Under the pieces are notes generated by a model. That model searched no databases. It saw only the letters and a program-made list of their open reading frames with translations, and had not been told where the DNA came from. A DNA stretch of 64,000 nt from positions 51,692-115,691 of the IMG/VR virus record IMGVR_UViG_3300033075_001734. One strand, 5' to 3'. The translations under genes and the position numbers were made by a program. The stretch comes from a virus. Below are positions 3,697-41,116 of this stretch, in pieces (position 1 is the first letter of the stretch; every line of letters begins with the position of its first letter).

Positions 3697-4332
3697 GTGA
3701 AAGTTGTGGGAGGCAAAAACAGAAATACATTACGAGCTAAACAACAATTGCATCTTGATTCACTTAAAGATAAAATTATTTTTTGGTATATTGAAGAGAA
3801 ATATACAACTATTCAAATTCAAAAATTAATTTTAGATTTAGGATTTAATTATACGATTGGTCAAATTGGATTTGCAATAACGAGATTTGGTTTAAAACGA
3901 AATAGGGACACAAAAACAGAAACGTTTTTGAATGCGATAAAAAACAGAAAATACAAATTAAAAAATTGTAATCATTGCATAGAAAAATTTTTACCTACGT
4001 CAAACAGTCAACTTTTTTGTCAGAACTGTTCACCGTGTTCTACACATTCAAGAAGAATTAAGAGATACGGTGTTGGGAAACAAGAATTTGATAAAATGTA
4101 TTTTGCGCAAGATGCAAAATGTGGTATTTGTAAATTAGAATTAGATTTAATGAACACAGTAGTTGACCACGATCATATAACATTGTATATTCGTGGATTA
4201 TTGTGTCGCAAGTGTAATTTAAAATTATGCGTTATTGAAGAAAAACAATTTGTAATAAATGCACAAGAATATTTGTCCTTTTATGAAAAAAATCCAAATG
4301 AAAATTTACGTGCAACTTTAAAGAGTAAATAA
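3697..4332 (+). CDS. HNH-family (Endo VII-like) endonuclease, putative homing endonuclease
   Basis: C-terminal CGICK...VDHDHITLYIRGLLCRKCN is the HNH/EndoVII motif (DHDH...RGLLC..CN). It sits immediately upstream of the split dnaE. Confidence 0.65.
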   Translation: MKVVGGKNRNTLRAKQQLHLDSLKDKIIFWYIEEKYTTIQIQKLILDLGFNYTIGQIGFAITRFGLKRNRDTKTETFLNAIKNRKYKLKNCNHCIEKFLPTSNSQLFCQNCSPCSTHSRRIKRYGVGKQEFDKMYFAQDAKCGICKLELDLMNTVVDHDHITLYIRGLLCRKCNLKLCVIEEKQFVINAQEYLSFYEKNPNENLRATLKSK

Positions 4333-6410
4333 TGAGTGAAATAAAAAGTCCTAACACCTTTTTTGGTCTTCATAACCATACGACGTTCAGCACATATGAT
4401 GGACTCGGTTACCCAGATGATCATTTTAAATTCTGCATGGAAAATGGCCTTGATGGTCATGCGATTACAGATCATGGTCATCTCAACAGTTATGCTCATG
4501 CTCAACTTTGGGTTGAAGATTGGAACAAGAAAAACAAAGAGAAACCGTTCAAGTATATTCCTGGCGTTGAAGCGTATTTTCACCCCGATCTTGAACAATG
4601 GAAACGTGACAAAGAAGCATTTGATCAATCAAAAATTGATAAAAAGGCTGCGAATCTTTTAAAGACTAAACAGGAAAAACTTCAATCAAAGTTAATCGCA
4701 GTCACTGACGGTGATGATGAAACCGAAAGCATTGAAATGAGTAATGCTCTCACGGTTGAAGATGAAGAAGAATCAAAGTCTACAAAAAACTTTAATCCTG
4801 TTAACAGAAGACATCACTTAGTTATACTTCCGAAGTCACAGAAAGGCCTTCAGAAAATCTTTGCCGCCGTGAGTAAAGGTTATATGCAAGGGTTTTATCG
4901 ATTTCCTAGAATTGATTCTCGCGTCCTCAAGGAAGCAGGAAAAGATGGCGACTTGGTAGTTTTAAGCGCATGCATCGCTGGGAGTCCTGCTTTTGAAGTT
5001 TTTCAGCAGGTTCAACAAGTGAAATTTGATGAACTGAGTGAAAAACTTCTTGATGATCCTGTGTTACTTGAAAAATGTGTAACATCAATTGGGAACGTAT
5101 ATGACTTAATGACAAGTTGTGTAGGTCAAGGAAATTATTATCTTGAACTTCAATTCAATAAACTTCCTGCACAGAATCTTGTCAATCGTGCGATAATTGA
5201 ATTCGCAAAACGCAGTGGTCAAACAAAACAACTTGTTGTTACTTGCGATGCACACTATTACAATCCTGATGTTTGGCGTGAGCGAGAGATTTACAAGAAA
5301 ATTGGGTTCATGAATTACAAGGACGTAGATCCTAATTCAATTCCAAAATCTCGCGACGAACTAAAGTGTGAACTTTATCCTAAGAATGCAACACAGGTCT
5401 GGGATGAATATCATCGTTCGAAAGCTAATACGTCGTTTTATGATGATGAACTTATTCGTGATGCCATTGAAAGAACTCATGACATTGCTCATAAAGTTAT
5501 CGGCGAAACACCACCAGATAGAACTTCAAAACTTCCTAGCGAAAAATTAGTTCCCAAAGATGAAACTGCATTTCAACATCTTGTAAAACTTTGCAAAGAA
5601 GGAATTGTTAAACGTAATCTCCATAATGATATTCGTTATGTTGAACGTCTCAAAGAAGAACTTGGCGTCATCAAAAAAATGAAGAATGCTGAGTACTTTG
5701 TAACGTATCAAAAGGTTACTGAACTTGCAAGAAAAAGGGTTCTTCTCGGGTGCGGGAGAGGATCTGGTGGGGGATCTTTAATCAATTACGTTCTGTACAT
5801 TACAGATCTCGATCCAATCAAATGGGATCTTCCATTTTCACGCTTTATCTCAGTGTACCGGCAAGGGGCTCCGGATATCGACTGTGTTAACTTTGATCAT
5901 TTAGTCATAATGGCTGATGGGACACATAAATTTGCTGGTGAAATTATGATTGGTGATGAAGTTTTGGGTGGTGATAATAAACCTCACAAAGTTCTTGAAA
6001 CATGGATGCGAGGTTCAAAACATGGCGAATTCGCATTGGAAATTTTTGTAAAAGCAGACAATGAAATATATGGTTGTATTGACGTCGTGCCAAATCATAA
6101 ATTCATTACAAATAATGGTGATATCGTAAAAGCAAATGAACTTAAGGTCGGTGATAAATTGATGTCTTCGTCAGAAGTTGAAATCGTTGAAATTAGGTTT
6201 TCAGCAAAAACTGATCAATTGTATGTTGATATCACCGTCGAAGATGATCATCGATTTCATGTAATTCCGTTTAATTGTGTAGTAAATGAATTAGAAATAA
6301 TGAATACGTATTCATATTGTAATGAGATGATTCCAAATACGTTTATTATGTGTGGCGAAGGTGAGAATTATTGCAATGCATCGTGTGAATCAAAGAGGAA
6401 TATTTGGTGA
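4332..6410 (+). CDS. dnaE: DNA polymerase III alpha (DnaE) N-terminal fragment, comprising the PHP domain, the palm start and an intein N-part
   Basis: PHP motif FFGLHNHTTFSTYDGLGYPDDHFKFCMENGLDGHAITDHGHL. The catalytic motif SRFISVYRQGAPDID is interrupted after PDID by CVNFDHLVIMADGT...DDHRFHV, which looks like intein blocks A-F. Confidence 0.85.
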   Translation: MSEIKSPNTFFGLHNHTTFSTYDGLGYPDDHFKFCMENGLDGHAITDHGHLNSYAHAQLWVEDWNKKNKEKPFKYIPGVEAYFHPDLEQWKRDKEAFDQSKIDKKAANLLKTKQEKLQSKLIAVTDGDDETESIEMSNALTVEDEEESKSTKNFNPVNRRHHLVILPKSQKGLQKIFAAVSKGYMQGFYRFPRIDSRVLKEAGKDGDLVVLSACIAGSPAFEVFQQVQQVKFDELSEKLLDDPVLLEKCVTSIGNVYDLMTSCVGQGNYYLELQFNKLPAQNLVNRAIIEFAKRSGQTKQLVVTCDAHYYNPDVWREREIYKKIGFMNYKDVDPNSIPKSRDELKCELYPKNATQVWDEYHRSKANTSFYDDELIRDAIERTHDIAHKVIGETPPDRTSKLPSEKLVPKDETAFQHLVKLCKEGIVKRNLHNDIRYVERLKEELGVIKKMKNAEYFVTYQKVTELARKRVLLGCGRGSGGGSLINYVLYITDLDPIKWDLPFSRFISVYRQGAPDIDCVNFDHLVIMADGTHKFAGEIMIGDEVLGGDNKPHKVLETWMRGSKHGEFALEIFVKADNEIYGCIDVVPNHKFITNNGDIVKANELKVGDKLMSSSEVEIVEIRFSAKTDQLYVDITVEDDHRFHVIPFNCVVNELEIMNTYSYCNEMIPNTFIMCGEGENYCNASCESKRNIW
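5883..6410 (+). mobile_element. intein N-terminal portion (blocks A, B and F) inserted in the DnaE PDxD catalytic motif
   Basis: Begins with Cys directly after PDID. Contains the Hint-domain block F DITVEDDHRFHV. It lacks a canonical terminal HN and ends in a 45-aa Cys-rich tail. Confidence 0.55.
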
Positions 6411-6628
6411 TGAAAATTATATTTGAAACAGAAAAAGATTGGACTAAACGTGTCAAATGCACAAAATGCAATTGTTCTATAGAACTTGACGTTCATGATC
6501 TTGATTACATTTCAAATCGATGTGATGGTGCATCATATCAATGGCAATGTCCTAAATGTAAATATTATACATTTTTGAATGCAACAAAAATTCCCGCCAA
6601 TATAAGATGTATTATACGAGGCCTTTAA
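6404..6628 (+). CDS. small CxxC...CxxC zinc-ribbon protein
   Basis: Motif KCTKCNC...CPKCK. It is a tandem paralog of the next ORF. Confidence 0.4.
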   Translation: MVMKIIFETEKDWTKRVKCTKCNCSIELDVHDLDYISNRCDGASYQWQCPKCKYYTFLNATKIPANIRCIIRGL

Positions 6629-6862
6629 ATGAAAATTATTTCTACACCTAAACTTGAACAATGGTCAAAGCAATCTACGTGTACATCATGTAAAACTGTT
6701 GTTGAACTTGAATATCGTGATTTGCATAGTTTTTATAGCGATCAGCGCGATGGTTCATCATGTCAATGGACTTGTCCAACATGTAAACGAAGCGTATATG
6801 AAAATGCGGAAAACATTCCTTCATATGTAAAAATTGCTTATGCAGATGGGCGCTTGAAATAA
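6629..6862 (+). CDS. small CxxC...CxxC zinc-ribbon protein (paralog)
   Basis: CTSCKTVVELEYRDLH...CQWTCPTCK is co-linear with the previous ORF. Confidence 0.4.
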   Translation: MKIISTPKLEQWSKQSTCTSCKTVVELEYRDLHSFYSDQRDGSSCQWTCPTCKRSVYENAENIPSYVKIAYADGRLK

Positions 6863-6977
6863 TGAAACTTAAAACAATTAATAACATTTTAAGAAAATTT
6901 GGAATTGTGTTGGTAGTTGAAATAGGTGATAATTTTGAACCAATTGTTTTACGTATACAACAAGCGAGGTCATTTAA

Positions 6978-7274
6978 ATGAAACAACAAATGACATTAAT
7001 AAAAGTTACAGACGTAGAGCATCGAATGATTATGGATTTCCGAGAAGGAATGAAACAATATATTCATGATAAAACTGCATCATTTAAGAAATCTTATCAT
7101 GATTATCGATATGCGCATCACTATAAATACAAAAATAAATCATTTTGGATTTTAAGTGAATTTTATTCCAGCGACGAAAATTCCATTGAAATGGTTGACA
7201 ATAAGGAATGGGAACAAGAATATTTAGAAAATATCGTTGTTAACACTGATTATTCGTATTTGTGGAATAAATAA
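6978..7274 (+). CDS. hypothetical protein
   Basis: ORF of 98 aa. Confidence 0.3.
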   Translation: MKQQMTLIKVTDVEHRMIMDFREGMKQYIHDKTASFKKSYHDYRYAHHYKYKNKSFWILSEFYSSDENSIEMVDNKEWEQEYLENIVVNTDYSYLWNK

Positions 7275-7801
7275 TGGCACAGCGAATCATCATGTTGGTT
7301 GGACCAGATCGTTGTGGAAAAACCGAAATCGCCAAAGAGCTTTCAAAGCGAACTGGAATTCCAAGATTTAAAGCATCAACAGAACACGATACGTATCTTA
7401 ACGGATTAGGTGGGTTTTTGAATCAATTACTTTATGCCGATCCTCGTGCATTTGATCTTGCAAAACAAATTGGATTTAGCATGATTATGGACAGGGCATA
7501 TCCATGTGAAAAAGTTTATTCAAAAGTTTTCAACAGAAAAACTGATGAAATGGTTCTTGACATCATGGATAAACGTTGGGCATCGTTGGGAACTAAAATT
7601 GTTATTTGTTATCGATCTTCATACAAGGGAATTGTTGATGATTTGGATTCAAGTATTAATGAAACAGTTCTTGAAAAATTGTCACAGGAATATTTTAATT
7701 TTGCCGCGTGGACGAATTGCGATGTCATGATGTTAAATGTCGATGACGAAAATCTTGATCGTGAAGTAACTGAAATAATGAATTGGTTGGAAAGAGAATA
7801 A
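7274..7801 (+). CDS. P-loop nucleotide/nucleoside kinase-like protein
   Basis: Walker A motif MLVGPDRCGKTEIAKEL at the N-terminus, in the size range of dNMP/dN kinases. Confidence 0.45.
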   Translation: MAQRIIMLVGPDRCGKTEIAKELSKRTGIPRFKASTEHDTYLNGLGGFLNQLLYADPRAFDLAKQIGFSMIMDRAYPCEKVYSKVFNRKTDEMVLDIMDKRWASLGTKIVICYRSSYKGIVDDLDSSINETVLEKLSQEYFNFAAWTNCDVMMLNVDDENLDREVTEIMNWLERE

Positions 7802-8481
7802 TGGTTAAAATCACAAATTATGATGATGGGTTTTTTGATGATGGTCGAAAGTATTTTGCTCATGGACTTTTAGCATGGAAAACATTCGTTGAAAATGACT
7901 TAAAAGCAACATCATTAGCAGATTTCGGATGTGGTCAAGGTGATTGGCTTGAACCTCTCAAAAATCTTATTCCCGTTTGGGGTTGTGACGGATACGCCGA
8001 TCCGAATAATCTCAGAATTGATATTGCTGATTTTAGAAAAATTGACATAGGTACAGTTGATCCTAAGACGCTTGATGTCGGGAAACGTGATGTTGTAATG
8101 TCACTGGAAGCAATGGAGCACGTGTCAAACGACAAGGAATCAAATTTTCTCGATTGTCTATTAACGCCAGATCCTAGGCTTGTTGTCTTTGGTGTCGCTT
8201 CTGGTTATGGAATTTATGATCCTAATCAGGTAAAAATCAATCGTTTGGGTGAAGCCATTCCAGGTGGTCCAAAATGGCATGCTCAATTTGGTAGACATCA
8301 TGTTAATTGTCAACCTGTTGATGTTGTCGTTGATAAAATGTTAGCACGTGGTTATACGGTTGATATTCCACTATCTGCAAAATTTGCTTCATTGCGGGTG
8401 CCTTCTGGAAAAGGCATCCGAACAAAGTATGCATTTGCTGGGTTTTATAGAAAGAATACAAGGGTCTATAAAAAACTGTAA
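7783..8481 (+). CDS. class I SAM-dependent methyltransferase-like protein
   Basis: Motif I-like LADFGCGQGDWLEPL and a downstream acidic VVMSLEAMEHV motif. Confidence 0.4.
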   Translation: MVGKRIMVKITNYDDGFFDDGRKYFAHGLLAWKTFVENDLKATSLADFGCGQGDWLEPLKNLIPVWGCDGYADPNNLRIDIADFRKIDIGTVDPKTLDVGKRDVVMSLEAMEHVSNDKESNFLDCLLTPDPRLVVFGVASGYGIYDPNQVKINRLGEAIPGGPKWHAQFGRHHVNCQPVDVVVDKMLARGYTVDIPLSAKFASLRVPSGKGIRTKYAFAGFYRKNTRVYKKL

Positions 8482-8518
8482 CAGTGTAATTGTTAACGTA
8501 TTAAGACTAGAATAACTT

Positions 8519-9256
8519 ATGCTTCATTCTTTCCTAAATACAGGAAAGTCAGTTGTTGTTCATAACACTGACGTATCTGATCGCGATAAAGTCCTTGATG
8601 AATTGCGAGATTTCTTCGGGTATGAAAATGTAGTACCTATTTCAAATTTTAACTTAATGAAGGTAAAATCACTTCTTAAGGATCTTGCAAAGTTTTATGG
8701 CGTTCCTTATGAAGAAGTGAATCATGCAACGAGAACAGTTGAACAATCTGTTCGTTCTGCAACCATGAAACACGGTGATGACAAGAATTTATTTGTATTG
8801 ACATATGAAGAAGCATTAAAGTACGACAAACCGTTTAGTGACTTCATTGAAAAATACCCAGAAGTCGGTAAATCAATGTTGGTTTTGTTCAAACAAAACC
8901 GAAGTTTAAGTCGTCATGCGGGTGGAATTCTTGTATGTGATGACTTACCTAACAAAATGCCTTTAATTACGTCATGCGGTGAACCTCAAACACCGTGGGT
9001 CGAAGGTGTAAGTTCAAAACATCTTGAGAAAATTGGAAATTTTCTCAAGCTCGATATTTTAGGGTTAGAAACGCTTCGCCTTATTGAACGTACTATTGAA
9101 TTAATTATCAAAAAACAAGGTGGAATAATTCAGTTTGAAATTGACGGGAAAGTAAACAGAGTTGTTGGATCAAAAATGATCATGTTGAGTGATGGATCAA
9201 CAAAACGTGCCGATCAATTAAAGGAAAATGATGATATCATGTCCATTTTGCAATAG
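8519..9256 (+). CDS. dnaE: DnaE middle fragment, beginning with a short intein C-part (MLHSFLNTGKSVVVHN)
   Basis: SVVVHN|T is a canonical intein block G / +1 Thr junction. The sequence TDVSDRDKVLDELRDFFGYENVVPIS...GVPYEEV...HAGGILV...LKLDILGLETLRLIE that follows matches the DnaE palm, which would rejoin PDID. Confidence 0.8.
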   Translation: MLHSFLNTGKSVVVHNTDVSDRDKVLDELRDFFGYENVVPISNFNLMKVKSLLKDLAKFYGVPYEEVNHATRTVEQSVRSATMKHGDDKNLFVLTYEEALKYDKPFSDFIEKYPEVGKSMLVLFKQNRSLSRHAGGILVCDDLPNKMPLITSCGEPQTPWVEGVSSKHLEKIGNFLKLDILGLETLRLIERTIELIIKKQGGIIQFEIDGKVNRVVGSKMIMLSDGSTKRADQLKENDDIMSILQ

Positions 9257-10247
9257 AGAATTTAATAAATCACTTAAAAATCATTTAACAAAACATTTTG
9301 AAGGTGAAAATTCTATGATTCGAGCATATGAAAAACATATGAATAAATCTGTTGTTGATTTATATGTCAATTGTGGTAAAAGTGCCACTGAAATTGCGAA
9401 TTTAATTCGTAGCGAATGTAATTGGATTAAACCGTTAAAAGGACATGTTCTTAAATTTCTAGATGATAACAATGTTGTTCGTCGAAAAACGTCGGAAGCG
9501 ATGAAATCGTATTATACACAAAATGATGTATGGAATAAAGATAAAACAAAATATGATCATGAAAGTATAATGAAATATGCTAATTCACGTATGGGTGAAA
9601 ATAATCCAATACATAAAACAACGTTTGAACAACGATCATATTCAAACGCTTTCTCAAAACTTAAACGAGAAGGTCGTTTAGAAGAATTAGAAAAATTAAA
9701 AAGCGATATATCTGACGGGGTCACAAATTGGTTTTCTCAAGACCAAAATTATGAAAAATATATTGCGGCTTATGATGCGGCTCGGCCAAAACAATTAACT
9801 AATGTAAGATTGGGCGTACAAAATTATCACAAACGTTATGCTGACTTGGGATTACCATCGCCAAATAGAATCGCCTGGATTAGTAATCCTGAACTAATTG
9901 TTAAGAGTGCCCTCGAACAACTCAACCTGAAATTCCAGCATCAATGGTATTATGCTCGTGCGTGTTTTGATTTTTATCTTCATGATTACAAAACGATCAT
10001 TGAAGTCAACGGAACATATTGGCACGGTCACGAATCTGTTTTTGAAAATGATGAAATGATTCATCCGAACAAGAAAATTTCAATCAAAGATATTAAAGCT
10101 CGTGACGAACAGAAACGAGTGTATCTTATTGAAAACGGGTTTAAGTTAATAACATTGTGGGATAATGAGTTTAAAACAACAGAAGACGCTGTTAAAATTC
10201 TCGTTGAAAAATTAGAAATTAGTAATGTCGAAAATAACATCTCTTAA
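9228..10247 (+). CDS. endonuclease with an N-terminal zinc finger and a C-terminal Vsr/DUF559-like PD-(D/E)xK domain (putative homing endonuclease)
   Basis: N-terminal CPFCNREFNKSLKNHLTKHFE. C-terminal FDFYLHDYKTIIEVNGTYWHG...ARDEQKRVYLIENGFKLITLWDNEF resembles the Vsr-like fold. It interrupts dnaE. Confidence 0.5.
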   Translation: MMISCPFCNREFNKSLKNHLTKHFEGENSMIRAYEKHMNKSVVDLYVNCGKSATEIANLIRSECNWIKPLKGHVLKFLDDNNVVRRKTSEAMKSYYTQNDVWNKDKTKYDHESIMKYANSRMGENNPIHKTTFEQRSYSNAFSKLKREGRLEELEKLKSDISDGVTNWFSQDQNYEKYIAAYDAARPKQLTNVRLGVQNYHKRYADLGLPSPNRIAWISNPELIVKSALEQLNLKFQHQWYYARACFDFYLHDYKTIIEVNGTYWHGHESVFENDEMIHPNKKISIKDIKARDEQKRVYLIENGFKLITLWDNEFKTTEDAVKILVEKLEISNVENNIS

Positions 10248-11745
10248 AAAAGTTTCAACTACGTTTGAAGACATCAAATTGTGGTATGAACAAAACATGT
10301 CACCTGATGTCATAAACTTTGATGATCCTGAACCATTTAAAGTTTATTCTGATTCACGTTGGTGCGGCGTATTTCAACTAACCTCTGTGGGAGCTCAGAA
10401 GCTCTTTACAAAGGCAAGGCCAAAATCGATTATCGATATTGCAGCATTGACATCTGTTTATCGACCTGGGCCTTTGTCTGCAAACGTTGATAAACTTTGG
10501 TTGAAACATGAATTTGAATCTTATGATTGGGGTCATCCTCTTATCAATGAAACACTAAAAGAAACTCGAGGATTATGCGTGTTTCAGGAAAGCGTAATGT
10601 CTTTAGCTAATAAAGTTGCTGGATTCCCGCTTGATGAAACTGACGAGGTCCGTCGGGCAATTATGAAGCGTAGCATTTCAGGTGGTGCTGCTGCAATTCA
10701 GAAAATGAAAGAACTTGAAGACTCTTTCGTTAATGGTTGTATGAACAATGGTGTTCCTCAAAATACTGCAACCAAAGCTTATGAGACTATATGTCATTTC
10801 TCTGGATATGGGTTCAATAAAAGTCATGCAGTCGCCTATGCAATCTGTTCATATTGGTGTGCATGGCTTTTAACATATCACGAGGAAGAATGGGTAACTG
10901 CATATATTGAATCAATGTCAAATTCACCAGATAAAAAAGAAAAAGCATTTGGTGAAGTTAAACAATTAGGTTATGAAATTGTTCCCATTGATATCAATCA
11001 TGCCCAGATTGGTTGGACTGTTCTTCCCGGCAAAAAATTGATGCCAAGTCTTTTGACATGTAAAGGTATTGGCGAATCAGCAGCCGAAGAAGTTATTGCA
11101 AATAGACCTTATGAAAATATTGAGCAAGTTCTTTGGAACGAAGATGGAACTTGGAAACCATCAAAATTCAATAAACGTGGTCTTGAAGCATTAATAAAAG
11201 TGGGTGCATTTGCTTCACTTGATTGTGTTGGTGAAGATAAACTTTTTGAGAGTTATCGTCATATGTATGAGGTCATCATTGAAAACTCAAATGCCATTAA
11301 AAAATCATCTAAAAAAGATCCGAGTATTGGCCGTAAGACATTCTTCGAATTAACTCGGGCCCTTCGACCAATGCCTGAATGGTCTAGACGAGAGTTAGTT
11401 GAGGCATATGTTGACGTGTTTGGAAGTTTGGATGTTTCCAAACTGTTAGAACAGGATGTTCTTAAGAAACTTGAAGACAAGAACGTCATGTCAATTGACA
11501 ACTGGGAACAAAAGGGCTTTCACTGGTTTGTTGTTCAGAGTGTTGTAACAAAGAAAACAAAAACAGGAAAAGCGTACTTAATGATTAAGGGTCTTGGTCC
11601 GATGGGAAAGTCTTATAGAATTAATGTGTGGGGTTGGAAAGAAGAAAATGAACCGCTTGAAGAATTTGATGTTATTGTTGCTGAACTTGATAAAAATGAA
11701 TATGGATTTTCAACAACGTCATGGCGATGTAAGGTGATTGCATGA
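10225..11745 (+). CDS. dnaE: DnaE C-terminal fragment (fingers and OB-fold region)
   Basis: Motifs GVFQLTSVGAQKLF...ALTSVYRPGPL and GYGFNKSHAVAYAICSYWCAWLLTYH (the FNKSHA.AYA DnaE motif). Confidence 0.85.
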   Translation: MSKITSLKKVSTTFEDIKLWYEQNMSPDVINFDDPEPFKVYSDSRWCGVFQLTSVGAQKLFTKARPKSIIDIAALTSVYRPGPLSANVDKLWLKHEFESYDWGHPLINETLKETRGLCVFQESVMSLANKVAGFPLDETDEVRRAIMKRSISGGAAAIQKMKELEDSFVNGCMNNGVPQNTATKAYETICHFSGYGFNKSHAVAYAICSYWCAWLLTYHEEEWVTAYIESMSNSPDKKEKAFGEVKQLGYEIVPIDINHAQIGWTVLPGKKLMPSLLTCKGIGESAAEEVIANRPYENIEQVLWNEDGTWKPSKFNKRGLEALIKVGAFASLDCVGEDKLFESYRHMYEVIIENSNAIKKSSKKDPSIGRKTFFELTRALRPMPEWSRRELVEAYVDVFGSLDVSKLLEQDVLKKLEDKNVMSIDNWEQKGFHWFVVQSVVTKKTKTGKAYLMIKGLGPMGKSYRINVWGWKEENEPLEEFDVIVAELDKNEYGFSTTSWRCKVIA

Positions 11746-12254
11746 ATTCTCGACCAAAATTAGATGATGACAATGTAAGAAAGCTTGCCATTGAAAATCT
11801 TTTTGAAAAAAAACTTAAAGATTATTTCAAAGAATTTGACGGCGATCTTGATGAAGAATTCATAAAAGAAACTAAAAATGAATTATTTCTAGCAACTGAA
11901 TATGAACATGACGCGTATGATATATGCAAACGTCTTGAAAATAATTTTTTTTGGAACGTTGAAAGTGAACTGGTTCATTTGATGGAAACATATTTTTCTT
12001 ATCAATATAATGCTCACGACAAGATTGTCAAAGAATGGGTCAAAGAAAATAATATTCAATTGAAGTATTTTGAAGGTGATGAAGTAACGTATCAAAATAC
12101 ACGAAAACATCAAGAACATGGCAAAATAATTTCACGTGATCATAAAAAAGCAACATATACAATTTTTTCTAAACACCTTGGCCACGTTGAACAAGGCATT
12201 GGAACGCATGGAATAATTGTCAATTGCGAAGATATTATTGATTTGAAACTTTAA
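11742..12254 (+). CDS. hypothetical protein
   Basis: ORF of 170 aa with an ATGA overlap to dnaE-C. Confidence 0.35.
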   Translation: MNSRPKLDDDNVRKLAIENLFEKKLKDYFKEFDGDLDEEFIKETKNELFLATEYEHDAYDICKRLENNFFWNVESELVHLMETYFSYQYNAHDKIVKEWVKENNIQLKYFEGDEVTYQNTRKHQEHGKIISRDHKKATYTIFSKHLGHVEQGIGTHGIIVNCEDIIDLKL

Positions 12255-13189
12255 ATGATTTCAATGCTTGAAACAGTTATATCTTTAAGACCTATGACTT
12301 CATATTCAGTTTCGTATCCAACAAAAGGTTTAACTCTATAAAGCCCTTTGGGACCTGATATAAATTGTTTTTTATTTTTTTTCGTATACGCTGTTAAAAT
12401 TATAGAATACGTATTTTTATTTTTTGCATTTTTGAGCGCAAATTTTTCAGCAATTGTTTTTGATATGGACCACGAGCTAGCACCTTGTTTTGGTTTAAAG
12501 ATAAATTCTTTTTTAACAATCATCTTAGATGTGTTAACATCAAGTAATTTACTAATCCATTTTTCGGTTACACCCATTCCTCTATAAACAGCGTTGTGTT
12601 CAGGTTCATTAAATATATCATTATATTGATTTGCCAATAGAATTTTATGAATTGTATTGGCATTTTTCTTGTTTAACGGGTTTCCTCTAAAGTGTTGAAT
12701 AAGTGCTAAATAAATTTGTTGTTCAGCTTTTGTATTTTTTTCGAATGGAACTTTAGATGTTTCTATTCGATCTGCGGCAAAAGCATATTTGCCAAATATA
12801 TTTTTATTGTCGTTAGGAGCAAGCTTAATTTTATTAAGCGCCGTATCAAAACGACCTGACTCTTCGATTTTATTTAAATTTTGAAGACATTGTTTAAGTT
12901 GATAAAAAGTACTTTCTATATCAAAATAATCTGATTCATTGTCTTCCAAATATGCTTTAAATGAGCTCATATATTCAAACAGCGACTTATAATCATTTAT
13001 TGTTTTAGCAAACTCTTTCCATATAAAATACGTTGAGCAAGAAAGTAATATATTGACGAAGTATTCTTCGTCATTATGAGCTTTTTCAAGAAGCGATTTA
13101 AGTTTAAAAATTATCTTCTCATATAATGAAAGCGCTTTTTCTTTCATTTCGTTAAGTTCTAATTCACTATTTTCATCTATTGAAGGCAT
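12251..13189 (-). CDS. putative R-S-E type ADP-ribosyltransferase (Alt/Mod-like)
   Basis: C-terminal half carries VYRGMG (R motif), SSWSIS (STS-like motif) and YETEYEV (ExE motif) in the correct order. Confidence 0.4.
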   Translation of the reverse strand: MPSIDENSELELNEMKEKALSLYEKIIFKLKSLLEKAHNDEEYFVNILLSCSTYFIWKEFAKTINDYKSLFEYMSSFKAYLEDNESDYFDIESTFYQLKQCLQNLNKIEESGRFDTALNKIKLAPNDNKNIFGKYAFAADRIETSKVPFEKNTKAEQQIYLALIQHFRGNPLNKKNANTIHKILLANQYNDIFNEPEHNAVYRGMGVTEKWISKLLDVNTSKMIVKKEFIFKPKQGASSWSISKTIAEKFALKNAKNKNTYSIILTAYTKKNKKQFISGPKGLYRVKPFVGYETEYEVIGLKDITVSSIEII

Positions 13190-15178: not shown

Positions 15179-15430
15179 ATGATATATCCCGGTGATTTAT
15201 GTATTGTACGAAGATTTAATGGGTCTGATTCATTTATCCCAGTTTATGATAAAAATTTCATCTTTTCTAAGAATAAAGTATGCATAGGGGGCTTTAAACA
15301 TATGTGTCTTGTTATTTGTTCGTTAACAATTAAGGGTGATTCATATTCTTCGTATTATATCATATCAGATAATGGTCTAACAGGCTGGATTTACGAATCA
15401 AAGTTTTTGATGAATACAAAATCTGTGTAG
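15179..15430 (+). CDS. PGDL/GWI small-protein family member
   Basis: Carries YPGDLCIV and GWIYES. Confidence 0.45.
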   Translation: MIYPGDLCIVRRFNGSDSFIPVYDKNFIFSKNKVCIGGFKHMCLVICSLTIKGDSYSSYYIISDNGLTGWIYESKFLMNTKSV

Positions 15431-15477
15431 TTTAATAGTAATGTTATTATGCATTCTAGTGAATTAAAATAAAATAA

Positions 15478-15699
15478 ATGAAAATTTATCCCGGTATGTT
15501 GTGTAAAATTGTTGGAGCTTTTGAAAATGACATACACATAATGATGCTTGATTGCGAAGATTATACTGATGCTTTTTTAGTTAAAAAAAATTCTTTAGCA
15601 TTAATTTTAACACAACATGGAGATGGGATGTTAGTGTTGTTAACGTCAACAAAACAAATTGGAACTATACATAGTTGTGTTTGTGATATTATAGGTTGA
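15478..15699 (+). CDS. PGDL/GWI small-protein family member
   Basis: Carries YPGMLCKIV and IGTIH. Confidence 0.4.
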   Translation: MKIYPGMLCKIVGAFENDIHIMMLDCEDYTDAFLVKKNSLALILTQHGDGMLVLLTSTKQIGTIHSCVCDIIG

Positions 15700-17024
15700 A
15701 TATGAAAAAGAAATTATTGATTCAAACACAGTTATCAAATTATAACTCACAAGGAAAATTTGATCTTGCCTGTGATAGCGGCTGGAATATGATGATGGGA
15801 AGAGTTAGAGAAATGCTCAAACTTAATCCCGATCTTTACATTGATATCATGGGGCCATATTACGATTATGATGGTCAAAATCAACTTGTAGAAGAACCCT
15901 GGAAAGTTAACAAAGATATTTTTGATTCTGGTCGTGTGCTATACATTCAACATTGGGTCATTCCAAATGCGCTTATAACAAGATATGATTTTGACTATAA
16001 GAATACTGATTATCAATTAAGACTTGAAGAACACAAAAAAGACGTGAGTTTAAGATATGATGCCGTGTACATTAATGATCCAATGCATCTTCGTAACTTT
16101 AAAGCATTGTTTTATTCATCTGGTGGGTATCGTCCAAAATTTTATGTTCATTCACACTTCGTAGATAATCCAACTTGTCCAAAATTTCCACTTGAATCTT
16201 CGTTATGGTTAGGACAATGCGAAGCAGCAATTCGCGCCGACTATAATTTTTGGCAATGTGAATCTGCGATGAACGTATTTTTTGATGAGATGAAAGATTT
16301 CTACAGAGAAGAACTTGTTGAATACACAAAATTGAAATCAATTCCTTGGGATGATGGTTATTCATCTACTGAAATTTCATCCGTAGTTGATGTAAATAAT
16401 CTACGATATCATAATATGATTGATGAATTCAATGTTAAAACATCTGATAAATGTGTTATTTTTGTTCCTAATCGTATTGGAGGAAAAGGAAGATCAAGTG
16501 ATTATACGAATTGTGGAAAATTCATGTTTGAAATTTTGCCAGAATTACGAAAGTTACGTGATGATTTTGTTGTGATTGCAGGAAATCCAAGTCAAAGATT
16601 TGTGAATGATGAACTTGAAACACTTTGTGGTGAAAATGGGTATATAAAGTTAGTCCCAGAAACTTTTAATAGAGATGAATATAAGTACATTGTTTCAAGG
16701 TGTGATATTGTCGCAGGTCTTTATGATCAAGATAGCTATGGTTCGACCGCCTCGAGAGAATGCGTTGATTTAGGTTGTGTACCTTTATGGATAGATAACT
16801 TTGAATATTCTGTGCTTTCACGAGAAGCAGGATATACAGAATATTTGGCAAAGCCTGATTTTTCTGATATTGTGAGTAAGACAAGTCGATTAATTGATTT
16901 GGTAAAAGCACGCGATCCAAAATTGTTTGTCACTAAAAAACACTTACAGCGTGTCATTAGAGAAAAGTGTTCATATGAAAGTACAACACCTAAAATGATG
17001 CAAATAATGAATTTGATGCCTTGA
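15696..17024 (+). CDS. putative GT-B glycosyltransferase
   Basis: C-terminal domain VIFVPNRIGGKG...VIAGNP...STASRECVDLGCVPL resembles GT1/GT4 donor-binding motifs. It lies between sugar-nucleotide enzymes. Confidence 0.4.
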   Translation: MNMKKKLLIQTQLSNYNSQGKFDLACDSGWNMMMGRVREMLKLNPDLYIDIMGPYYDYDGQNQLVEEPWKVNKDIFDSGRVLYIQHWVIPNALITRYDFDYKNTDYQLRLEEHKKDVSLRYDAVYINDPMHLRNFKALFYSSGGYRPKFYVHSHFVDNPTCPKFPLESSLWLGQCEAAIRADYNFWQCESAMNVFFDEMKDFYREELVEYTKLKSIPWDDGYSSTEISSVVDVNNLRYHNMIDEFNVKTSDKCVIFVPNRIGGKGRSSDYTNCGKFMFEILPELRKLRDDFVVIAGNPSQRFVNDELETLCGENGYIKLVPETFNRDEYKYIVSRCDIVAGLYDQDSYGSTASRECVDLGCVPLWIDNFEYSVLSREAGYTEYLAKPDFSDIVSKTSRLIDLVKARDPKLFVTKKHLQRVIREKCSYESTTPKMMQIMNLMP

Positions 17025-40099: not shown

Positions 40100-41116
40100 A
40101 TGAGTAAGTTTTGGCCAAGTATTGAGAATTTTCACACCCTTCGCAAAGGAACACAAAAATATCCACACCTTTTAGGATCTTCACCAAAAGTAACGTATAA
40201 AGCAAAGGTGAAATTGCACGGAACAAACGCAGGTATTGAACTTTTTGATTGTATCAATGGCCCAACTGTTCGTGCGCTATCACGAACGCAAATTATTTCA
40301 CCAGGAAATGATAATGCTGGGTTTGCTGCGTGGGTATGGGGAAATAAAGAAAAATTTGTTTCGCTTTGTCATCCTGGTCGAACCATTGTGATTAATGGCG
40401 AATGGGTTGGTCCTGGAATTATGAAAGGAACAGCTGTGAATAAACTTGATTCAAAGAAATTCATGGTGTTTGCTGTCACAATTTATCAAGACGATGATGT
40501 TATTGGATTTATTGTGGATCCTGAAGATCTTGGTAGTTTGCTTGAACCTGTTTCAGATATCGTTCATGTTATTCCTTGGTATGACTCTGGGAAAGAATAC
40601 GAAATCGATTTTGAAAAATCAGGTGAAGAATTACAATGTCTTGTTGAAGATATCAACAAAGAAGTACTTCAAGTTGAAGCATGTGATCCTTTCATGAAAT
40701 CACAATTTCAACTTGAGGGAATTGGTGAAGGTCTTGTGTTTTACCCTATCGATGAAGAGCATAGTGATTATGAATCATTTTCAAATCTTTGTTTTAAGGC
40801 CAAGGGTGAAAAACACCAAAGTGTTGCACACACAAAACCTGCTCAAATTGATCCGTCTATAGCAAATAGTTTAACAGAATTTGCTCATCTCGTCTTACCT
40901 GTTTCACGCCTCGAACAAGGTGTATATGCAGTTAACAATGGTGTTCTTGAATTTGATAACAAGAAAATCGGACTTTTTCTAAAATGGATCAATGAAGACT
41001 TGTTTAAAGAAACACAAGGTGAACTTGAAGTAAGCGGTCTTAATTCAAAAGATGCATATCGAAAATGTAGTGAAGTTGCTAGAACTTGGTATCTTTCACA
41101 AATGAAAAAACTATGA
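40100..41116 (+). CDS. RNA ligase 2 (Rnl2)-like nucleotidyltransferase
   Basis: YKAKVKLHGTNAGI matches T4 Rnl2 REKIHGTNFS, including the KxHGTN lysine-adenylate motif. Confidence 0.55.
   Translation: MSKFWPSIENFHTLRKGTQKYPHLLGSSPKVTYKAKVKLHGTNAGIELFDCINGPTVRALSRTQIISPGNDNAGFAAWVWGNKEKFVSLCHPGRTIVINGEWVGPGIMKGTAVNKLDSKKFMVFAVTIYQDDDVIGFIVDPEDLGSLLEPVSDIVHVIPWYDSGKEYEIDFEKSGEELQCLVEDINKEVLQVEACDPFMKSQFQLEGIGEGLVFYPIDEEHSDYESFSNLCFKAKGEKHQSVAHTKPAQIDPSIANSLTEFAHLVLPVSRLEQGVYAVNNGVLEFDNKKIGLFLKWINEDLFKETQGELEVSGLNSKDAYRKCSEVARTWYLSQMKKL

Follow-up and report, generated by a model that had tools for sequence, protein, structure and literature searches.

A phage DnaE polymerase encoded in three pieces, with a putative natural split intein cut near its C-terminus at one break and probable intein-derived docking tails at the other

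How can a replicative DNA polymerase be assembled when its gene is broken twice, once inside the catalytic motif itself? The question is raised by a 64,000-nucleotide stretch of viral DNA (IMG/VR record IMGVR_UViG_3300033075_001734, positions 51,692 to 115,691), hereafter the window, in which dnaE, the gene for DNA polymerase III alpha (PolIII alpha), is split over three plus-strand open reading frames (ORFs), F1, F2 and F3, between 4332 and 11745. Judging from the sequences, we consider it roughly 70% probable that this is a three-gene DnaE in which trans-splicing would heal the first break and a dead split intein would serve for docking at the second. The three ORFs (given in amino acids, aa) and the portions of polymerase, or exteins, that they carry are the following.

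4332-6410, plus strand: F1, 692 aa
8519-9256, plus strand: F2, 245 aa
10225-11745, plus strand: F3, 506 aa (end coordinate with the stop codon included)
4332..5882, plus strand: N-extein of DnaE, 517 aa; PHP plus the N-terminal half of the palm, up to the catalytic ...GAPDID
8567..9118, plus strand: middle extein, 184 aa; latter half of the DnaE palm/thumb region, colinear with the relative L005
10261..11745, plus strand: C-terminal extein; fingers, HhH and C-terminal region

Pfam searches detected PHP (E = 2e-20) and positions 1-109 of the DNA_pol3_alpha profile (E = 1e-27) in F1, positions 110-260 of the same profile in F2 (E = 3.7e-15), and DNA_pol3_finger (E = 3.9e-32) and HHH_6 (E = 1.2e-10) in F3. 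The PolIII alpha domain order, namely PHP, palm with PDxDxD, fingers and HhH, is kept across F1-F2-F3. The profile breaks exactly at 109/110, which indicates that the junction is exact and not a product of chance. Furthermore, residues 5-518 of F1, 16-202 of F2 and 13-503 of F3 align head to tail on the DnaE of L005, an uninterrupted relative (1206 aa). Thus, the three ORFs amount to one complete DnaE, and the alignment leaves as surplus residues F1 518-692, F2 1-16, F2 ~201-245 and F3 1-12. A preliminary description of the locus, made from the letters alone, had proposed both a DnaE in at least three fragments and a PDID-TDV junction that restores the palm motif; ORFs, Pfam domains and the L005 alignment agree on the former, and the profile running from 109 to 110 across F1/F2 bears out the latter.

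The surplus residues at the first break correspond to two parts of an intein.

5883..6407, plus strand: N-intein, 175 aa, with the stop codon at 6408-6410
8519..8566, plus strand: C-intein, 16 aa, MLHSFLNTGKSVVVHN, with the +1 Thr at 8567-8569

Cys1 of the N-intein is F1 residue 518 (5883-5885) and comes right after ...YRQGAPDID (5871-5882); block B, VVPNHKF, occupies 6084-6104 and block F, LYVDITVEDDHRFHV, occupies 6219-6263. F2 starts with MLHSFLNTGKSVVVHN followed by TDVSDRD, and an in-frame TAA stands two codons 5′ of its ATG, so that the C-intein cannot exceed 16 residues. The catalytic set at this break includes block F YVDITVEDDHRF on F1 and ...SVVVHN followed by the +1 T on F2. Block B (VVPNHKF) has an invariant His; where Thr would be expected, the window's subtype has Val, and a second subtype reads T-x-K-H. 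The two-ORF layout of a fractured gene is present, with F1 stopping at 6410 and F2 starting at 8519, and the same holds for L009, L010, L012, L022 and L023.

Past block F, F1 continues for 47 residues (IPFNCVVNE...NYCNASCESKRNIW), first as a family-specific hairpin, IPFNCVVNE...Y, from 6264 and then as a Cys-rich end. The preliminary description had counted 45 residues in this tail and had placed the split point after block F; the tail is there, at 47 residues, and the split does lie past block F, but an invariant, family-specific PF[N/D]V hairpin follows that block. The Cys-rich end itself (6290-6407) reads YSYCNEMIPNTFIMCGEGENYCNASC and may bind metal; the corresponding stretch in relatives is IGYCxxVIPGTFIACGExGNYCSDWC (P0001, P0002, P0003 and P0007). 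It is kept in some relatives, and others terminate directly after the invariant Tyr.

Both halves belong to a family that extends well beyond the window. A search with the end of F1 identified 11 protein clusters (44-60% identity), all of which stop after ...DDHRFH[VIL][VI]PF[NSTD] and a tail of 10-45 residues. Invariant in the close N-fragments are Cys1, P-x-H-K-F of block B, V-D-x-T-V and H-x-F of block F, P-F and the tail Tyr; Cys1 is shared by all 12 close homologues and by every match inspected at the DnaE site. A profile search across 1.84 billion representatives yielded 39 N-fragment clusters (50% level) at the P-D-[IV]-D then C site, in nearly all of which block F gives way to F-x-[IV]-[IV]-P-F-[DN]-V, then to a tail and the stop. 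In all, some 40-50 N-fragment clusters end in this manner. Contiguous inteins at that site numbered only two in the profile search (P0141 and P0152). Both contain the PF[ND]V hairpin between block F and the last strand, which indicates that the hairpin is native to the family.

The C-terminal halves are similarly widespread. About 44 of 92 F2-like clusters open with a 16-23-aa ...H-S-F...HN peptide, a few being annotated with longer starts. The +1 residue is T, S or C in all ~44 of these C-fragments, and the 33 clusters without an intein there also show V, I and N. Two C-fragment subtypes can be distinguished, xxHSFLxxxxSVVVHN then T and xIHSFKKKNFWVGSHN then S/C/T, and the N- and C-half subtypes agree in all six of the loci in which both were read. 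The next DnaE fragment of three relatives opens with MTIHSFLAKNYSVVVHN, MVVHSFLASNKSVVVHN or MMLHSFLSKGHSVVVHN, each then followed by TD; there the C-fragment lies 1.8-2.6 kb downstream, and the interval holds a minus-strand Vsr-like endonuclease gene and small ORFs. Loci of subtype 2 (L022, L023) carry a same-strand PD-(D/E)xK endonuclease gene between the intein halves. The separating genes vary from locus to locus, and the split architecture is kept down to ~42% extein identity. With both halves conserved in many diverged phage contigs and their catalytic residues kept, the earlier proposal of a natural split intein cut after block F, with a C-intein of ~16 aa, is supported.

Tails of subtype 2 N-fragments often share Y-x-I-D-[T/S/A]-D about 20 residues after PFDV (P0119, P0121, P0125, P0126, P0138, P0145, P0146, L023 and others). 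This motif recalls the PDID-TD junction of the extein, but profile comparison gave no significant sign of descent from C-intein plus extein. The idea that the N-intein tail is a decayed duplicate of that pair was rejected: a hidden Markov model of 45 C-fragments scored 47 tails no higher than shuffled tails. A separate arrangement is seen in P0007 (L010/L011, 10001-10738), where one polypeptide consists of a classical C-intein, the seven-residue extein SGAPDID and the long N-intein; it would add just seven residues to the mature polymerase, and the dnaE of the L010/L011 contig is in about eight pieces.

Is the short C-part the missing end of a Hint domain? The N-intein was modelled by AlphaFold2 (AF2; 12-sequence alignment) as a Hint fold with a predicted local distance difference test score (pLDDT) of 80.5 and, in the N-fragment, strands at model residues 137-141, 143-147 and 152-154. 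Its best PDB matches in Foldseek are the mini-inteins MchDnaB-1, gp41-1 and NpuDnaE and a bacterial intein-like (BIL) domain (template modelling score 0.7-0.78 normalised by target, E down to 5e-8). Native F1 covers positions 2-123 of the 137 of PT-HINT, and the N-intein (to ...VEDD) joined to HSFLNTGKSVVVHN covers 2-136. Moreover, the C-intein aligns with the terminal HTYHVGDNEVLVHN of 2LWY and DHQFLLANQVVVHN of PI-SceI. These results indicate that the C-part is the counterpart of the last hairpin in a Hint domain. The mean charge is -1.8 for the stretch after PF and +1.4, plus ~1.5 His, for the C-intein handle; such complementarity agrees with the electrostatic zipper known for canonical split inteins.

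The best reading of the first break is trans-splicing, given that the family conserves Cys1, His in block B, Asp in block F, the His-Asn terminus and a nucleophile at +1. That the catalytic residues are kept at this break and lost at the other break of one and the same gene also argues for splicing here. The N-intein would fold alone into an almost complete Hint domain; its acidic hairpin PF[N/D]V..E....Y and the basic C-intein handle xxHSFLxxGK would draw the two chains together, and the C-intein would contribute the last strand with His-Asn. Class 1 trans-splicing could then proceed through Cys518 of F1, Thr17 of F2 and cyclisation of Asn16, as the conserved catalytic residues and engineered precedents suggest, joining ...GAPDID to TDVSDRD... 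and so restoring the PDxDxD palm motif in a 746-aa chain.

The precedents come from inteins cut artificially near their C-termini. Engineered NpuDnaE IntN123/IntC15 and SspDnaE IntC16 splice, with ~96% ligation for Npu (Aranko et al. 2009, PMC2664965), and engineered S11 splits use a 6-aa C-intein (Lin et al. 2013, PMC3620165). As in IntC15 and IntC16, the C-fragment in the window is the last 15-16 residues (block F His, last-but-one strand, and last strand with His-Asn), and the N-fragment is a nearly complete Hint domain; the splicing of the engineered pairs shows that such a split can splice efficiently. Those short C-inteins, however, are man-made from inteins that are contiguous or naturally split elsewhere, and the natural N-fragment differs from them in having its own H-x-F strand, a conserved hairpin and a tail.

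The second break, between F2 and F3, presents a different picture, in which the intein-like ends have lost their catalytic residues.

9119..9253, plus strand: F2 acidic tail, 45 aa (GGIIQFEIDG...NDDIMSILQ), GGIIQFEIDGKVNRVVGSKMIMLSDGSTKRADQLKENDDIMSILQ; catalytically dead remnant of a split N-intein's latter half, presumed docking module
10225..10260, plus strand: F3 basic tail, 12 aa, MSKITSLKKVST; like the first beta-strand of a C-intein, with blocks F and G missing
9228..10247, plus strand: putative free-standing Vsr-like PD-(D/E)xK homing endonuclease gene, 339 aa; overlaps the F2 end by 29 nt and the F3 start by 23 nt

A tail of the F2 type, ~45 residues long, ends 76 of the 92 F2-like clusters, and both it and the F3 start tail are missing from uninterrupted relatives (L001, L005, L006, L009). 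We compared the 77 tails (the window and the 76 clusters) by hhalign with 11 canonical N-inteins, 10 of them from the relatives' loci (9 Cys1 forms) and one the Npu DnaE N-intein. The tails fall on columns 52-98 (probability 96.6%, E = 4.7e-10), the half that holds block B and the C-terminal strands. The F2 end is therefore intein-derived, but it had been described as resembling block A and in fact falls on the block B half of split N-inteins. Across the 77 aligned tails, TxxH is replaced (e.g. GDQ) and the start is devoid of a conserved Cys or Ser. Since the F2 tail has no nucleophile, the second break is not an active intein, and on the evidence of these residues splicing there is chemically impossible.

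On the other side of the break, F3 relatives open with 10-16 residues of the same kind (e.g. MAKVKSINNTVTQPT and MKPTKVTDISKCKPT), and similar tails occur in 11 other relatives. They resemble the first strand of C-inteins in the relatives' loci (MSNIKSITPVG..., MKLKSKTIVPY...) and have no His-Asn. The last 25 residues of F2 have a mean charge of -2.7 and the F3 start one of +1.6. What remains at this break is the interface pair between the halves of a canonical split intein; the ‘capture’ step described by Shah and colleagues in 2013 is said to involve the second half of the N-intein together with the C-intein. The F2 and F3 tails are probably docking modules: the acidic tail of F2 and the basic strand of F3 would form a non-covalent docking module, making the active enzyme a two-chain protein. 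The preliminary description had offered separate polypeptides as an alternative to splicing, and this probably applies to the second break, where the catalytic residues are lost; the first reads as splicing.

The gene in the second break encodes a protein with a weak match to Vsr (E = 1.3e-5; 25.4 bits, under the 27-bit cut-off) and a match to DUF559 above its cut-off of 20.6 (E = 9.4e-5, 22.7 bits; Pfam). It contains the motif IIEVNGTYWH and is weakly similar to endonucleases in the breaks of relatives. The equivalent region of L023 (8792-9218) has two small ORFs of 61 and 85 aa between F2 and F3, the second of which is like the C-terminal end of the large endonucleases; in L023 the endonuclease is decayed and the second break persists.

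Could the first break also do without protein splicing? The Hint domain and the 16-aa peptide might associate non-covalently, or F1 might autoprocess like a BIL domain, and the polymerase would then consist of three chains. Tail-held split genes are known, and the second break of the same gene evidently functions without splicing; the N-intein, in turn, has its own H-x-F strand, is predicted to fold alone and counts a BIL domain among its top structural and sequence matches. We nonetheless regard a three-chain polymerase as unlikely. The catalytic residues and the +1 nucleophile are kept at the first break over ~44-50 diverged clusters and have all decayed at the second, and the first break interrupts the PDxDxD catalytic motif, the place at which a continuous covalent chain is most likely to matter.

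Several observations do weigh against a spliced first break and a docked second one. An H-x-F strand occurs in both halves (HRFHV in F1 and HSF in F2), and two copies of it would have to be accommodated; in a MAFFT alignment the HSF of the C-intein falls over the end of the PF[ND]V hairpin, where some N-fragment tails read ...VHSY, so that one strand is seemingly present in both halves. Block B in the window's subtype has Val or Pro where Thr is usual. The AF2 model of the contiguous relative P0141 reaches a pLDDT of only 48-60 over the last 25 intein residues and is unreliable for placing the split point. No Shine-Dalgarno sequence is recognisable upstream of F2, the norm for this phage not having been checked. 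For the second break, F3 offers too few residues of the first-strand relic for a statistical test, and an active intein at this site was found in no relative, so that a split-intein origin there rests on homology.

What separates the two intein halves, and how did it get there? The interval between F1 and F2 contains five ORFs.

6404..8481, plus strand: intervening genes g1-g5, five ORFs with weak Pfam matches
6404-6862, plus strand: g1 and g2, tandem paralogues of ~75 aa with two CxxC pairs
within 6404-8481, plus strand: g3, no assigned function
within 6404-8481, plus strand: g4, P-loop kinase-like
within 6404-8481, plus strand: g5, methyltransferase-like

Neither Pfam nor tblastn searches detected an endonuclease, intact or remnant, in the F1-F2 interval, and no meaningful direct DNA repeats border the 2.1-kb insert. 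Homologues of g1 and g2 were not found in the diverged related loci. In relatives, g4 and g5 are placed downstream of dnaE, which indicates that a rearrangement put ordinary genes between the window's intein halves; the five unrelated genes of the preliminary description are thus five ORFs, two of which sit downstream of dnaE elsewhere. With ordinary genes and no endonuclease between them, the halves are no longer tied to a mobile element. Three sibling contigs (L014-L016) have most of g4 (7338-7737) swapped for a gene encoding a 379-aa GIY-YIG/NUMOD3 homing endonuclease, and from this exchange it looks as though endonuclease turnover is ongoing inside the segment that separates the halves.

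Eight IMG/VR relatives, with 57-80% identity over F2, cover every state of dnaE. The gene is uninterrupted in L005, carries a single split intein of classical type and a Vsr-like endonuclease gene in L001, and has several classical split inteins with endonuclease genes at other places in L002, L004 and L007 (GRG then SGGGS, HR then SGAPDID, KTY then C, GFNKS then H). An additional split-intein site lies in the conserved finger motif GIFQ then C (GVFQLTS) in P0043, P0050, P0055, P0090, P0094 and P0102, in L010 at 15278-15754 and in L022 at 9376-9828; the window is uninterrupted at this motif.

Under the name of fractured genes, Dassa et al. (2009, PMC2677866) described genes broken within a split intein whose halves flank a free-standing homing endonuclease gene, together with three metagenomic DnaE loci and the Vsr-like family; in that set N-parts of 88-105 aa are paired with C-parts of 33-54 aa, apart from one exception with a long C-part. 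The present locus is like these genes in several respects. The break in a phage replication gene falls inside an intein, and the halves lie close together on the same strand; a Vsr-like, GIY-YIG or PD-(D/E)xK gene stands between the halves in L009-L012, L022 and L023 and also in the second break of the window; and classical split inteins occupy other dnaE sites in relatives. It is unlike them in its split point, which is not the canonical one but close to the intein's C-terminus (175 + 16 aa), and in that the first break holds five other genes and no endonuclease, although sibling strains carry the GIY-YIG gene there. Both breaks would be fractured genes created by free-standing homing endonucleases, with the endonuclease of the first break since lost in this genome.

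Repair at the level of RNA or translation (a group I or group II intron, or translational bypassing) would leave the intein-like ends unused. Vsr-like endonucleases are also found in group I introns (Dassa et al. 2009, PMC2677866), and the insert at the second break is short, at ~1.1 kb. Yet no Rfam intron family matched at E ≤ 1 in 4000-12500, and the first insert contains five whole genes. In dozens of relatives, moreover, the intein-derived ends have start and stop codons of their own and are conserved at the protein level, which makes such repair highly improbable.

The identical F1 protein occurs on 6 contigs, the places shown being independent samples (SRR32380200, JGI 3300045316, SRR29748438 and SRR32380201), and the gene order (Endonuclease_7 gene, F1, small genes, F2, Vsr-like gene, F3) is the same wherever a contig reaches. 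Four further contigs from four more samples are 96.6-98.5% identical over F2-endonuclease-F3, and variation within the population is too small for dN/dS. The exact F1 protein and the shared gene order in independent samples rule out an assembly artefact. The preliminary description had also allowed for such an artefact, or for a contiguous dnaE in related genomes; the layout recurs, and relatives are mostly split, two being contiguous. The source is uncultured, and g4 and g5 are displaced relative to relatives, but an artefact or a recent disabling insertion into a decaying, pseudogenised dnaE has a negligible chance of being correct, given the recurrence of F1, gene order and a near-identical F2-endonuclease-F3 segment across samples, three intact ORFs that jointly make a complete DnaE, and a split conserved to ~42% extein identity.

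How does the proposed pair of breaks compare with known systems? The cyanobacterial split DnaE intein (Ssp, Npu) shares the host protein PolIII alpha, unrelated genes between the halves and, as we infer here, trans-splicing; it differs in its insertion site, in its canonical split (~102-123 + 36 aa) and in having its halves far apart in the genome. Like AceL-TerL, GOS-TerL, VidaL and PolB16 OarG, which come from phage-like metagenomic sequences, the intein in the window has a natural non-canonical split with one very short fragment. All of those, however, pair a short N-intein (15-37 aa) with a long C-intein, and the window presents the reverse. The literature to 2025 describes canonical natural splits (~100 + 35-40 aa), natural short-N splits (15-37 aa) and engineered short-C splits (S11, C15/C16); searches of the open full-text literature, subscription journals being outside the scope, turned up neither a short-C split intein of natural origin nor a dead split intein retained as tails.

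For the second break the closest parallel is the split NrdA of Aeromonas phage Aeh1, which cannot assemble without tails that arose when mobE was inserted (Crona et al. 2011, PMC3045599). In both cases a free-standing endonuclease gene divides an essential gene, the fragments have unique C- and N-terminal tails, and there is no RNA or protein splicing. Unlike those of Aeh1 NrdA, the tails in the window appear from the hhalign match (E = 4.7e-10) to be recognisably derived from a split intein, and the F2 tail is kept in 76 of 92 clusters. We put forward, tentatively and as a proposal that may well prove wrong, that this is the first natural split-intein family cut near the C-terminus (C-intein of 16-20 aa), that its self-contained Hint N-fragment possesses its own copy of the C-peptide strand and assembles by strand exchange or sheet extension, and that a splicing-dead split intein is kept beside it as a heterodimerisation module. 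Assembly in either way would be a natural parallel to engineered ‘caged’ or overlapping split inteins.

Elsewhere in the window, a 211-aa Endonuclease_7 protein (E = 1.9e-13) is encoded at 3697-4332, its end coinciding with the start of dnaE. A homologue takes the equivalent position in L002 and is also present in L018-L021; the protein could be a recombination endonuclease or a further free-standing homing endonuclease. Other products of the window include a GroEL-like chaperonin (49739-51403; phrog_5725, E = 3e-141), an RNA ligase (40100-41116; phrog_548, E = 1e-42) and a clamp-loader-like ATPase (48273-49505). No tRNA genes were found in the window, most of its large ORFs have no PHROG match, and a scan for promoters and terminators gave the same counts as shuffled sequence. 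Related IMG/VR contigs measure 88-270 kb; among 50,697 GenBank phage records there is no close relative, the best amino-acid identity being ~33%.

Short C-inteins accessible by peptide synthesis are wanted for C-terminal labelling and semisynthesis (Aranko et al. 2009, PMC2664965), and those at hand come from artificial cuts, often with poorly soluble fragments. A natural family with two subtypes and dozens of orthologues would offer ready candidates tuned by evolution as two pieces. For the biology of these phages, it would mean that homing endonuclease genes are able to fracture an intein outside the canonical endonuclease site, after which the halves can move away from each other along the genome. 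Survival of a split intein as a docking device after the loss of catalysis would, moreover, link protein splicing with the tails of Aeh1 NrdA. If the reading is true, two evolutionary end-points of endonuclease-driven fracture would stand side by side in one gene.

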